A stretch of DNA of 24,000 nt from Verrucomicrobiota bacterium JB024 (lineage in GTDB: Bacteria; Verrucomicrobiota; Verrucomicrobiia; Opitutales; Cerasicoccaceae): positions 48,954-72,953 of the forward strand of contig JAUTCS010000092.1 of NCBI GenBank assembly GCA_030673825.1. The letters run 5' to 3'. Both the position numbers and the translations under genes were made by a program. How positions within the stretch are numbered: the stretch's first letter is position 1; each line of letters starts with the position of its first letter. Below are positions 5,268-11,409 of this stretch, in pieces. Under the pieces are notes generated by a model. It saw only the letters and a program-made list of their open reading frames with translations, was not told the origin of the DNA and did not search any database.

Positions 5268-5921
5268 ATGTCCGCTCGTCGCCACAAATTGTCTGAGGTC
5301 CAACTACTGTTTGTTTTTTGTGTGCTTGTTGCCGCGTTTGGAGCGGTTTCTATTTATTTCCTTCGCGTTTACCTCGAAGCAACTGCTCCTGATCCAGGGC
5401 CGGTAAATATTGAATACACAGATTACGATTTCGACCGGAAGGGAAATTCGACCTGGTGGGGATTTCGTTGTACGTCTCCGACGTTTAAAGGCGAACTGAG
5501 GTTGGTGGCTAAATCGGAGGGTGAAGACCAGATACTGTTTTCGCTGCCGATTGTTGTCACCGATGCATCAACCGTAAATATACGCATCCTACAGGATTGG
5601 GAAAAAACATATGACGCACCTGCGAAATACATGCTGGACGTTTCGTGGGAGCCAGCTGATTCAAATGGCCAAGCACGGGATCAGGGGGAGGCGGATATCC
5701 GCGGACGTAGCTACACCTGCCTGATGCCGAAGTTCTCGGAGTTGAGTAATTATTCCTATAGTGTTTGGCTGGAGAATACTTACTACCGACTTTGGACTTT
5801 TGAGTCTATTGGGCAAGGAGAGGAACAATCCCCAGAGTCGAACCTGTTGCTCGAACTACGTCTCTATCCAGATGAGGCCTTGATAAATGCGTGGGAAGAA
5901 CGTGAGTCCGAGGCCTTTTAG
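5268..5921 (+). CDS. Hypothetical membrane-anchored protein (N-terminal TM anchor, no recognisable domain)
   Basis: 217-aa ORF with an ATG start. The N-terminus MSARRHKLSEVQLLFVFCVLVAAFGAVSIYFL is a signal-anchor. Local GC is 45-48% in two hand-counted 60-nt samples versus about 67% in ppdK. I recognise no family. Confidence 0.6.
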   Translation: MSARRHKLSEVQLLFVFCVLVAAFGAVSIYFLRVYLEATAPDPGPVNIEYTDYDFDRKGNSTWWGFRCTSPTFKGELRLVAKSEGEDQILFSLPIVVTDASTVNIRILQDWEKTYDAPAKYMLDVSWEPADSNGQARDQGEADIRGRSYTCLMPKFSELSNYSYSVWLENTYYRLWTFESIGQGEEQSPESNLLLELRLYPDEALINAWEERESEAF

Positions 5922-6016: not shown

Positions 6017-6746
6017 GCGGGGCATGCGCCACCTGCCCCTCATTCTGATTTTCTGCGTGTCAACCGCCTGTTACGGCAACTCAGCGCAGCCCGCGCCGGA
6101 GATCATCCCCTATGCCTCTCAAGCGGCCTTTAACCAGGCTCGCTCAATACTACAAGCCAGACGACTGGACTATATCGAGCGTGTGTTGCACATCAATAGG
6201 AGCACCTATGCTCCCGTGATTGCTCATTTTACCGGGCGAGTCCAGATCGTGGAAGTGGATTCCGGGCGGATCATTTGCGAAGCCCGAGTCGAGGCCAACG
6301 AGGAGACGGTATTCGCCGCCGAGTATGTTTCGCGCCAGGTGCAGCTCGGCACGCCCAAGAGCGAATGGCCGGGCGGATGTGGCCGTCCGATCGACAACGT
6401 AGCGGTCTCGTTTTTCTGGGTCAACCTCTCCGACTACGGGAAGCCCGTCGGTCCGGGAGAACTGGGCAGCTCCTTTGACGTTAGCACCAGCTACGTGTAT
6501 GACAGCGATGAGTATCCGACTTGGTATCAGGTTCCGGTCAATGACTGGGGCGAGGATGGTACGTATGTCTTTTGGGTGAGTGCGGTGGTCAAGCGCGGCG
6601 TCGAAGTAGAGACGGTGAAGGCGGGCATCCCCACAGGAAAAGCCGAGGGTGTGGACTATCTGTACATGATGCGGCTCGTGCCGGACGAAGAAACGGAGGC
6701 CGAGAGCTCAGCCGGTGGCCCTCCCGCCACCGTTACGCCCCACTGA
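6015..6746 (+). CDS. Hypothetical secreted protein or possible lipoprotein
   Basis: The track ORF starts at TTG 5988. I prefer ATG 6015, with AGGAA at 6003-6007, or ATG 6024. The signal peptide is MRGMRHLPLILIFCVSTACYG. I recognise no domain. Its 3' end overlaps the convergent hflX 3' end by 14 nt (6733..6746). Confidence 0.65.
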   Translation: MRGMRHLPLILIFCVSTACYGNSAQPAPEIIPYASQAAFNQARSILQARRLDYIERVLHINRSTYAPVIAHFTGRVQIVEVDSGRIICEARVEANEETVFAAEYVSRQVQLGTPKSEWPGGCGRPIDNVAVSFFWVNLSDYGKPVGPGELGSSFDVSTSYVYDSDEYPTWYQVPVNDWGEDGTYVFWVSAVVKRGVEVETVKAGIPTGKAEGVDYLYMMRLVPDEETEAESSAGGPPATVTPH

Positions 6747-8022
6747 CTTTAAAGGCCTCCACCGCGTCCAGCAGGCGGGTGGGGATCATGCCCTGGATGA
6801 GCACGCCCTCGTCCTGGGCTTCCTCGGAGCGGACGGCGCCGGCCTGGTGGAGCTTGCCGATGAGGTCGTAGCGGTCGTGGGGGATGAGAAGGGTCATGGC
6901 CTGGCCGAACTCGCGCAGCATCTGCTCGCACTTGTCCAGCAGCAGCTCGAGGCCCTCGCCGGTGTGGGCGCTGATGAAGAGGGCCTTGGGGTGGTCGTGG
7001 CGCAGCTCGATCTCGCGCAGGTCGTCGAGGCCGCGGTCGATCTTGTTAAAGACGGTGATGATGTTCTTGGTGTCCGCGCCGAGCTCCTTGAGCACGTCGA
7101 GAGTGGTCTTGAAGTGCGCCTCGGCTTCCGGGCTGGTGGCGTCCACGACGTGGATGAGGAAGGTGGCCACGAGGGCTTCCTCCAGGGTGGCTTTGAACGC
7201 CTCGACGAGGCGGTGCGGTAAGCGGCGGACGAAGCCGACCGTGTCCGTCACCAGCAGGGGCAGGCCGGAGGGCAGCTCCATGCGGCGGGTGGTTGGGTCG
7301 AGGGTGGCGAACAGCTTGTCGGCGGCGAGAACTTCGGAGCCGGTCAGGCGGTTGAGCAGGGAGGATTTGCCCGCGTTGGTGTAGCCGACGATGGCGGCGG
7401 AGGGGAGGGGGACCTTCATGCGCTGCTTGCGCTGGGTCTCGCGGTGGCGGACGACGTCCTTGAGCTCGTGCTTGAGGCGGGCAATGCGCGTGCGGATGAT
7501 GCGCTGGTCGAGTTCGAGCTGGGTTTCCCCGGCGTCGCGCTGGAGGGCGCCGCCCCCGCGCTGGCGGTCGAGGTGCGTCCAGGCGCGCTTCATGCGCGGG
7601 AGCATGTACTCCAGGCGGGCCAGCTCGACCTGGAGACTGGCTTCCTTCGTCGAGGCGCGGCTGTTAAAGATATCCAGAATGATCTCCTGCCGGTCAATGA
7701 CGAGAACCTTGCCGCTGGCCTCACGCTCCCAGTTGCGCTGCTGGGCGGGTGTGAGCTCCTCGTCGAAAATGATCGAGTCGCACTCCTCCTGCGCGACCTC
7801 TTCGAGGACTTCCTTGACCTTGCCGGTGCCCAGCAGGAACGCCGCCTGCGGTTCGCGGATGCGGACGATCTTGCGGATGCCCACCCCGATGCCGAGGTTG
7901 GAAGCCAGCTCCTCGAGCTCCTCCAGCAGGCTCTCGGCCTCGCCGGATTTCATGCCGGGGCGTTCCACGCCCAGCAGGCAGGCGCGTTTGATCATCGGGT
8001 TCAGGTCGTCGGTATCGATCAT
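6733..8022 (-). CDS. hflX: GTPase HflX
   Basis: G-domain motifs are GYTNAGKSSLLN (G1), DTVGF (G3) and NKID (G4), with an HflX-type N-terminal domain (KRACLLGVERPG...). The start is taken at MIDTDD (ATG 8022-8020). The track's extra 15 aa (MRLCAFAVNPPSFPS, TTG at 8067) is a translation of the inverted-repeat arm. Confidence 0.95.
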   Translation of the reverse strand: MIDTDDLNPMIKRACLLGVERPGMKSGEAESLLEELEELASNLGIGVGIRKIVRIREPQAAFLLGTGKVKEVLEEVAQEECDSIIFDEELTPAQQRNWEREASGKVLVIDRQEIILDIFNSRASTKEASLQVELARLEYMLPRMKRAWTHLDRQRGGGALQRDAGETQLELDQRIIRTRIARLKHELKDVVRHRETQRKQRMKVPLPSAAIVGYTNAGKSSLLNRLTGSEVLAADKLFATLDPTTRRMELPSGLPLLVTDTVGFVRRLPHRLVEAFKATLEEALVATFLIHVVDATSPEAEAHFKTTLDVLKELGADTKNIITVFNKIDRGLDDLREIELRHDHPKALFISAHTGEGLELLLDKCEQMLREFGQAMTLLIPHDRYDLIGKLHQAGAVRSEEAQDEGVLIQGMIPTRLLDAVEAFKVSGA

Positions 8023-8036
8023 GGATGGAAAGGAGG

Positions 8037-8072
8037 GGGGATTAACCGCAAAGGCGCAAAGACGCAAAGGAG
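8037..8072. repeat. Left 36-nt inverted-repeat arm flanking the GxxExxY gene
   Basis: GGGGATTAACCGCAAAGGCGCAAAGACGCAAAGGAG. It contains three tandem 8-mers (CCGCAAAG GCGCAAAG ACGCAAAG). It is identical at 33 of 36 positions to the reverse complement of 8558..8593. Confidence 0.9.
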
Positions 8073-8107
8073 AATGTTGACGCAGTTGAAGAACGGGTTG
8101 GGTCGTG

Positions 8108-8500
8108 TTAGCGGCTTAGGACGACACGTCGGATGCCATGCTTGATTAACGGGGTGTTGAAGTTGATCAGAAGACCGAGTTGGTTGCCGGTTAATTTCAG
8201 ATAAGTGAGCAATTGGGCCTGATGAAGCGGTGTCAACTCCTCGGCTGCTTTGAGTTCAAGGATGACTTTTCTTTCCATCCAGATGTCGAGTCTGAGTCCG
8301 GCGTCCAGTTGTACGCCATCATAGATGACGGGCAGATGGACTTGTGTCTCAAGGCTCAGGTTTTGCTTGGAAAGTTCATGGGCCAGGCACTTCTCATAGA
8401 CCGATTCCAGCAAGCCGGGGCCGAGTGCACTATGCACTCTGAAGGCGCAATCAACGGCCATTTTAGCCAAGGAGTTTTCAATCCCCAGGAGCGTTTCCAT
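8108..8500 (-). CDS. GxxExxY family protein (PD-(D/E)XK nuclease-like superfamily)
   Basis: 130 aa. It has the signature GPGLLESVYEKCLAHEL (G-x-x-E-x-x-Y), plus D...ELK (LRLDIWMERKVILELKA) resembling a PD-(D/E)XK core. The C-terminal LGLLINFN is typical of the family as I remember it. Confidence 0.9.
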   Translation of the reverse strand: METLLGIENSLAKMAVDCAFRVHSALGPGLLESVYEKCLAHELSKQNLSLETQVHLPVIYDGVQLDAGLRLDIWMERKVILELKAAEELTPLHQAQLLTYLKLTGNQLGLLINFNTPLIKHGIRRVVLSR

Positions 8501-8557
8501 TTATTCCTACTACAAAGACCGAAAGCACAGAGGCGGTAAAGCCAGAAGTCGACTACC

Positions 8558-8593
8558 CTCCTTTGCGCCTTTGTGTCTTTGCGGTTAATCCCC
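8558..8593. repeat. Right 36-nt inverted-repeat arm flanking the GxxExxY gene
   Basis: CTCCTTTGCGCCTTTGTGTCTTTGCGGTTAATCCCC. Its reverse complement GGGGATTAACCGCAAAGACACAAAGGCGCAAAGGAG matches the left arm, with a 17-nt perfect outer block and 3 mismatches overall. Degenerate CAAAG-type 8-mers also occur at about 8511..8541. Confidence 0.9.
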
Positions 8594-8626
8594 AAACAAA
8601 AAAGCCCCGGCGCGAGGCCGGGGCTT
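8594..8626 (-). terminator. Rho-independent terminator of ppdK
   Basis: The minus strand reads AGCCCCGGC-CTCGC-GCCGGGGCT followed by TTTTTTGTTT. That is a 9-bp GC-rich stem (8603-8611 / 8617-8625) plus a U-tract, 27 nt after the ppdK stop. Confidence 0.8.
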
Positions 8627-8652
8627 TGAAAGGAGGGAACGCGCTTCGCGGG

Positions 8653-11409
<2,757 letters not shown>

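Follow-up and report, generated by a model that had tools for sequence, protein, structure and literature searches.

The window considered here is a stretch of 24,000 nucleotides (nt) from Verrucomicrobiota bacterium JB024 (contig JAUTCS010000092.1, positions 48,954 to 72,953). Between ppdK and hflX it carries a small cassette, in which a gene of the GxxExxY family lies between two inverted repeat arms. The cassette appears to be one of seven pairs in this genome, each formed by a small predicted nuclease and a dispersed repeat family of its own. The coordinates of all features are collected in Table 1.

Each arm is 36 nt long. The two arms are complementary at 33 of 36 positions (92%) and enclose 485 nt, and the outermost 17 nt of both match perfectly. 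An earlier reading of the letters, made without database searches (the sequence-only reading), had reported this inverted repeat and had described each arm as three tandem units, and both descriptions are correct. From the outside to the inside, an arm consists of TTAACC followed by three 7-nt units of the CGCAAAG type at an 8-nt phase, on both sides. As had been proposed, the arms enclose only one convincing gene, which encodes a protein of 130 residues. It lies on the minus strand, as do ppdK and hflX, the two neighbours already named from the letters. The G+C content falls from 0.65-0.70 in the flanks to 0.50-0.535 within the element, which bears out the drop estimated by hand. The right arm does adjoin the tail of the ppdK terminator, the T-run of which extends up to the arm. 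At the other end the ATG of hflX (8022-8020) sits 14 nt beyond the left arm, rather than the 15 nt given earlier. The peptides said to arise by translation of the arms are present, as the same strings, in the list of open reading frames (ORFs), where they are spurious.

The protein matches both PF13366 (PDDEXK_3; E = 1e-41, 142.4 bits, cut-off 22) and TIGR04256 (GxxExxY; E = 1e-42, 145.2 bits, cut-off 35) far above the curated cut-offs. PDDEXK_3 is the sole Pfam family matched, and there is no match to GIY-YIG. Its motifs are G29-E32-Y35, D72, E82-x-K84 and Q96-xxx-Y100. Across 55 sequences G29, E32, Y35, D72 and K84 are invariant, while E82, Q96 and Y100 are conserved in at least 90%. We take the set D72, E82-x-K84 and Q96-xxx-Y100 to be that of the PD-(D/E)XK nucleases of the RecB, Cas4 and lambda-exonuclease type. 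The AlphaFold2 model has a mean predicted local distance difference test score (pLDDT) of 95 and a predicted template modelling score (pTM) of 0.88. The nearest solved fold is that of Cas4 SSO0001 (E = 4.6e-4, template modelling score ~0.5, with a high root-mean-square deviation), followed by LHK-Exo, MGME1 and lambda exonuclease; a search of Protein Data Bank (PDB) chains by sequence gave no match. From its profiles and model, the gene product is predicted to be a minimal RecB/Cas4-type PD-(D/E)XK nuclease. Cas4 proper was considered and rejected: the protein has only two cysteines (18 and 38) versus the four that hold the Cas4 iron-sulphur cluster, and its neighbours are ppdK and hflX, not cas genes. 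Because no PADLOC or PHROGs family matches it, the protein is not a listed defence or phage family. The family defined by PF13366 and TIGR04256 is a large one, found across bacteria and in some archaea. PF13366 has been listed with unknown function (PMC3424549), and a search of the literature on GxxExxY, PF13366 and PDDEXK_3 found no paper that describes arms.

The assembly to which the element belongs (G000; 4.6 Mb, 163 contigs, 61% G+C) was scanned for arms with at least two phased units of the type C-N-C-N-N-A-G/T, with the reversed genome as control. About 620 phased arms are present genome-wide versus 60 in the control, and a looser first scan gave 232 convergent arm pairs versus 12. The arms sort into seven families by prefix, unit and phase, and the ppdK-hflX element belongs to family D. 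The short tandemly repeated repetitive (STRR) sequences of cyanobacteria are, like these arms, arrays of a tandem 7-nt unit and often occur as inverted pairs; to our knowledge they have been described as repeats without an associated gene. Most arm pairs in G000 enclose no gene and form hairpins, the loop being either 7-30 nt or 70-210 nt long. Arms that differ from the gene-bearing arms at no more than three of 24 positions number 52 in family A, 93 in B, 33 in C, 44 in D, 8 in E1, 8 in E2 and 15 in F; the same search of the reversed genome found 0 for each of the seven families. The genome-wide search that the sequence-only reading had called for thus found a repeat that is not unique, and a chance origin of the ppdK-hflX arms is excluded, because 44 close arms occur in the genome versus 0 in the control. 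Gene-less members of family D resemble the cassette only at cassette positions 1-39 and 518-557. The possibility that gene-less copies are internal deletions of a gene-bearing copy was rejected, since the resemblance does not extend beyond the arms. Target-site duplications were not found, and direct repeats of 2-4 nt flank the 99 pairs considered at the frequency expected from shuffling.

The relation between genes and arms is best seen in the paralogues. The surmise that GxxExxY genes are multi-copy in some genomes holds here: TIGR04256 genes number seven in G000. All seven lie between inverted phased arms, and each lies within arms of a different family. The paralogues share 34-57% identity in pairwise comparison and appear to be old. 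A tree of 30 proteins from G000 and four relatives has clades that agree with the prefix, unit and phase of the arms.

The same relation is found among 41 related genomes of the same order, which contain between 0 and 8 GxxExxY genes and between 0 and 249 three-unit arms each. Three-unit arms are present in 27 of the 27 genomes with the gene, while 13 of the 14 without it have no arms after control hits are subtracted and the remaining one has a single hit. Gene count and arm count are correlated (Spearman rho 0.91), the 41 genomes being related and so not independent samples. Within one genus, five species have gene and arms, and one species with a 4.9-Mb, 99%-complete assembly has neither. 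Individual families behave similarly. Family B gives 158 and 67 hits in genomes with its gene and 14, 2, 0 and 0 in genomes without; family D gives 30, 21, 21 and 6 with its gene and 2 and 0 elsewhere. Family A gives 75 and 34 hits in genomes with its gene, 40 in one whose gene is a variant, and 26, 10 and 6 elsewhere; the 26 are in G008, where the only gene is broken by a TGA and stands beside one hairpin. In family F the relation extends to the unit itself. The gene-bearing arms of G000 use NGAG units, and its dispersed arms are 19 NGAG versus 6 RAAG. The cognate gene of G002 has RAAG arms, and RAAG hits number 17 in G002 and 18 in G003; the two or three NGAG hits in these genomes were counted with a narrower NGAG pattern than that used in G000. 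At one shared intergenic site with a family F element, the unit variant follows the gene in all eight units. The arm abundance of a family is strongly associated with the presence of the matching gene, with exceptions in G003 and G008. Among wider homologues, 76 loci from more than 15 phyla and one archaeon could be evaluated; at 46 of them the inverted repeats on either side outscore all shuffles, and most of the remaining loci show a TTAACC or CTCAC prefix with CRCRRAG units at a phase of 8-11 nt.

At the ppdK-hflX site itself, the same cassette is found in the same place in G001 and G003, which are sister species of the same genus. The ratio of non-synonymous to synonymous substitution (dN/dS) in its gene is 0.09-0.12, with dS up to ~1. 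Identity to G003 is 92-94% in the arms, 80% in the ORF and 50-82% in the inner spacers. The left arm is conserved at 94-100% and the inner 5′ spacer at 82-86% in G001 and G003, while the inner 3′ spacer is conserved at 50% in G003. Because of this low dN/dS, the shared site and the high arm identity, gene and arms are judged to be conserved and vertically inherited here, with the gene under purifying selection. The cassette is an old resident and not a recent insertion.

This bears on the suggestion of the sequence-only reading that a small selfish element, or one like a miniature inverted-repeat transposable element (MITE), had inserted into a housekeeping spacer. The dispersed arm family, the seven paralogues framed alike and the arm-free site in three other genera agree with a small cassette of this kind. 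The element is not a classical MITE: there is no target-site duplication, the gene-less members share the arms alone, and the gene is old, vertically inherited and under purifying selection. The comparison with relatives that had been proposed gave no clean empty site. In three other genera with hflX and ppdK adjacent (G007, G008 and G024) the spacer has no such arms, but none of them offers a precise empty site. The spacer of G008 has a terminator with tandem ACTGCTAC-like units behind it; that of G007 is built alike, with an opposite-strand ORF in addition, and that of G024 holds an opposite-strand ORF. A small GC-rich hairpin accompanies the ACTGCTAC-like units in the spacer of two other genera (L020:1180-1290; L026); the array is a different tandem-unit repeat at the same site.

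The explanation that we favour, with modest confidence, is that the ppdK-hflX element is a cognate nuclease-repeat pair, one of seven in the genome. It is the single gene-bearing member of repeat family D. The nuclease would recognise its own arms through their phased 7-nt units, most probably in the form of an extruded hairpin or a single strand, and would cut there. Gene-less hairpins of the same family would depend on this nuclease to arise or to persist, and seven such gene-repeat pairs would stand side by side in one genome. The pair could serve selfish spread, or it might have a host function such as the control of recombination. What the sequences show is the architecture, the division into families, the joint occurrence of gene and arms and the selection on the gene; binding, cleavage, the form of the substrate and the biological role are inferred. 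A precedent exists in SsnA, a small GIY-YIG enzyme that is flanked by its own hairpin repeat, NTS, and cuts single-stranded DNA at that repeat (PMC11893778). The same nuclease-repeat logic, shown biochemically for this unrelated enzyme, lends support to the cognate pair by analogy.

Several points weigh against a cognate pair. It is drawn from comparison of genome sequences and from a predicted structure. The association between gene and arms is partly built in, each gene bringing two arms, and the genomes compared are not independent. The chance of finding seven genes in seven different families, weighted by family size, is ~0.001 by rough arithmetic, a figure that is only indicative because the families were assigned after the arms of the paralogues had been seen. 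Some hairpins occur where no cognate gene was found, namely 18 of F′ type and 14 of B type in G003, and the 26 of A type in G008, which has the broken gene only. Arms of families D, C and F also frame three orphan ORFs unrelated to the nuclease, so that an arm pair can do without the nuclease in cis. In families A and D an arm resembles its partner more than it resembles other arms, but in families B and C complementarity is no higher between partners than between non-partners. The absence of target-site duplications also counts on this side, as does the lack of a clean empty site, both at the hflX-ppdK spacer of the three other genera and at six element sites of a 20-kb syntenic block. It seems a doubtful step further to regard the GxxExxY proteins as sequence-programmed nucleases of hairpins or single-stranded DNA, each reading a 7-nt unit repeated three times at an 8-10-nt phase, with seven orthogonal pairs in one genome; cuts at the arms would then both spread the gene-less hairpins and let small cassettes be exchanged at fixed intergenic sites, with neither an integrase nor a known transposase involved.

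Another possibility, also raised in the sequence-only reading, is that the element acts as RNA. The arms would form a long RNA stem that is cut by RNase III or another host RNase, releasing or silencing the ORF after the manner of ORF-bearing 23S rRNA intervening sequences, and the nuclease would not act on the arms. In the predicted fold of the RNA of 8610-8020 the two arms do pair and enclose the ORF, in the minimum-energy as well as in the centroid structure (z = -3.4), but the 5′ arm comes immediately after the ppdK terminator and a transcript across both arms needs read-through. In many members of the families the arms directly adjoin both the start and the stop codon, so that no separate promoter would fit in between, and one member occupies an operon-like spacer, 6 nt downstream of a stop codon and 14 nt upstream of the next ATG. 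Mismatches between arms nevertheless show no sense-strand preference for G.U (65 vs 77), and 95 of them are transversions. Across phyla the unit sequence is more conserved, and more specific to each family, than pairing alone would require, and the partner arms of families B and C, as noted, are no better matched than non-partner arms. In favour of an RNA element, the three TIGR02436 genes of this genome, which belong to a family found in intervening sequences of 23S ribosomal RNA (rRNA), are also framed by inverted arms of tandem units. The link of each arm family to its own gene is, however, left unexplained by RNase III, an enzyme of little sequence specificity. The nearest solved folds, moreover, are those of DNA nucleases. 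Recognition of the phased units in DNA rather than in RNA is favoured because of the missing G.U bias, the likeness of non-partner arms in B and C, the unit conservation, the folds and the terminator before the 5′ arm, and an element that works through RNA is considered improbable.

The arms could also be boundaries of exchangeable cassettes, or hot spots of recombination, acted on by another enzyme or by host recombination, with GxxExxY as the commonest passenger or as an addiction-type gene. The content of arm-bounded sites is indeed variable. The same arms frame the orphan secreted and membrane ORFs, and two intergenic sites have different cargo among species of one genus with the arm ends retained. 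At the ppdK-hflX site of G002 (L019:790-1530) the left arm is kept, the right arm has decayed, and an ORF of 178 residues, which matches no Pfam family, takes the place of the GxxExxY gene. Neither this cargo nor the three orphan ORFs have paralogues in G000. The family C cassette site (L151:18885-19345; L170, L171, L169) differs in all four species of the genus: the same pair of genes is separated by a GxxExxY cassette in one, by an unrelated CCATTTAG-type hairpin in another, by a membrane ORF in a third and by two ORFs in the fourth, and parts of the arm ends survive. A 20-kb syntenic block has six element sites, every one of which coincides with a gap between conserved blocks and varies from species to species. 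A third variable site holds a cassette with a small membrane ORF in one species versus gene-less hairpins in the others. No clean empty site was found at any of the six, where relatives show other elements or a diverged spacer. Elements are also nested in one another. All seven GxxExxY genes are framed by their own family, however, and 13 of 14 relatives without the gene have no arms. An alternative enzyme is also wanting. Four weak matches to the Y1-transposase family PF01797 occur in ORFs of 236-319 residues, but phased arms are absent within 1.5 kb of all four. A RAYT was therefore rejected as the mobilising enzyme, and no other candidate that follows the arms was found. Boundaries served by some other enzyme are accordingly regarded as unlikely. 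Two further readings, in which a regulator uses the arms as ordinary operators or a palindrome arose by chance in the ppdK-hflX spacer alone, are so improbable that they can be set aside: phased direct repeats in inverted orientation can in general be regulator sites, but the excess of arms and convergent pairs over the control already contradicts both readings, and homologues from more than 15 phyla are framed by arms of the same grammar.

The design of a cognate nuclease-repeat pair would parallel two known systems, RAYT with REP/REPIN and Ssn with NTS, and what appears to be new is the enzyme superfamily and the repeat grammar. In the Ssn system with its NTS/SRM repeats (Chenal et al. 2025, PMC11893778), as here, hairpin repeats stand on either side of a gene for a small single-domain nuclease, the repeats are multi-copy genome-wide, gene and repeat co-occur across phyla, and enzyme-repeat pairs diverge together. 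Ssn is, however, a GIY-YIG enzyme (cd10448), not a PD-(D/E)XK enzyme (PF13366), and an NTS repeat consists of one semi-palindrome and an oriented tag upstream of it, in place of three phased 7-nt units. Site-specific cleavage of single-stranded DNA has been demonstrated for Ssn, whereas cleavage by GxxExxY is predicted. RAYT genes with their REP/REPIN repeats (REPtrons and TIRtrons; PMC3333891, PMC3733652) are likewise single-copy genes between inverted copies of a dispersed repeat, with several orthogonal pairs per genome, no target-site duplications and vertical inheritance of the gene. RAYT is an HUH Y1 transposase (PF01797), while PDDEXK_3 is the only family matched here, and REPs have GTAG or CGTC tags instead of phased CRCRRAG units.

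Two other kinds of element are similar in outline. The intervening sequences of 23S rRNA in Coxiella and Leptospira (PMC4990558) are 0.4-0.6 kb long, with inverted ends that form a stem around a small ORF, and genes of the type that they carry, TIGR02436, are framed by tandem-unit arms in this genome. The present element, however, lies between ppdK and hflX and not in an rRNA gene, its ORF is of a different family, and the lack of a G.U bias, an indirect test, does not favour selection at the RNA level. MITEs, for example the Correia elements of Neisseria, are also short, intergenic and present in many copies with terminal inverted repeats, but these arms have no target-site duplication, their gene-less copies share the arms only, and no transposase of a known family goes with them.

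The link of each paralogue to its own phased repeat gives a large family of unknown function a role that can be tested. If the cognate pairing is true, PD-(D/E)XK would be the third independent superfamily, after HUH (RAYT) and GIY-YIG (Ssn), in which a small nuclease is paired with a genome-wide hairpin repeat, which would suggest a general route by which bacterial genomes acquire and maintain repeat families. It would account for the hundreds of intergenic hairpins in such genomes and for the spurious peptides annotated in them, and it could supply a set of orthogonal site-specific nucleases.

Table 1. Features of the ppdK-hflX cassette, arm families of the genome and other loci discussed in the text
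Feature	Position	Strand	Description
Left arm	8037..8072	.	GGGGATTAACC then three CGCAAAG units, 8-nt phase; 3′ arm on the gene strand
Left-arm CGCAAAG units	8047-8053, 8055-8061, 8063-8069		7 nt each, 8-nt phase
Right arm	8558..8593	.	Inverted copy of the left arm, 33/36; 5′ arm on the gene strand
Right-arm unit complements	8561-8567, 8569-8575, 8577-8583		
GxxExxY / PDDEXK_3 gene	8108..8500	-	130 residues; profile matches, AlphaFold2 model, dN/dS
Inner 5′ spacer, right arm to start codon	8501..8557	-	AGGA Shine-Dalgarno-like motif 6 nt before ATG
Inner 3′ spacer, stop codon to left arm	8073..8107	-	50% conserved in G003
ppdK intrinsic terminator	8601..8627	-	T-tail abuts right arm
ppdK, upstream neighbour	8653..11409	-	Pyruvate, phosphate dikinase; TIGR01828, E 0
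hflX, downstream neighbour	6733..8022	-	HflX; TIGR03156, E 2e-124
Family A arms			TTAAC-CACGGAT, phase 9
Family B arms			TTGCC-CGCGAAG, phase 10
Family C arms			TTAAC-CACAGAG, phase 9
Family D arms (family of the ppdK-hflX element)			TTAAC-CRCAAAG, phase 8
Family E1 arms			CTCT-CACAAAG, phase 8
Family E2 arms			TCA-CACGGAG, phase 9
Family F arms			GGT-CACAGAG-CACACAGAG-GAGG
Arm-framed orphan ORF	L062:77-629		Secreted, ~125 residues
Arm-framed orphan ORF	L064:80-1012		Secreted, 243 residues
Arm-framed orphan ORF	L065:78-464		Membrane, 99 residues
Weak PF01797 matches	G000:C83:26244-26573; C138:63-353; C138:1146-1439; C67:2201-2488		
TIGR02436 locus	L148:1371-1879		Units GTTTGAGA
TIGR02436 locus	L149:1404-1877		Units CTTGGTG
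TIGR02436 locus	L150:1423-1876		Units CATTGGT

Some arrangements of the arms are more elaborate than a single pair. At L151:659-992 and L151:3010-3319, two outward-facing family D half-arms lie within one family B pair and a complete family A hairpin within another, and family E1 elements regularly contain an E2 hairpin. On the same contig but outside the window, at G000:C92:4180-4425 and 5508-5755, a gene-less family D element of ~240 bp occurs twice in near-identical form; the copies are 1.1 kb apart and inverted relative to each other, as in a composite structure, and their arms extend inward with a CGCTGNCG motif. The arms of tandem 7-8-nt units that frame the three TIGR02436 genes, which encode four-helix-bundle proteins, have the opposite polarity to the GxxExxY arms, with the T/G-rich strand on the 5′ side.

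The cassette also has consequences for its downstream neighbour. Because it fills nearly the whole spacer from the ppdK terminator to the hflX start codon, transcription of hflX probably starts inside the cassette or reads through it; a scan of 7900-8750 for a sigma-70-like promoter found none. There is no purine-rich Shine-Dalgarno sequence before the ATG of hflX. The 14 nt upstream of it (8023-8036) are C/T-rich on the coding strand, and this region has a 4-nt insertion in this genome relative to three sister species.

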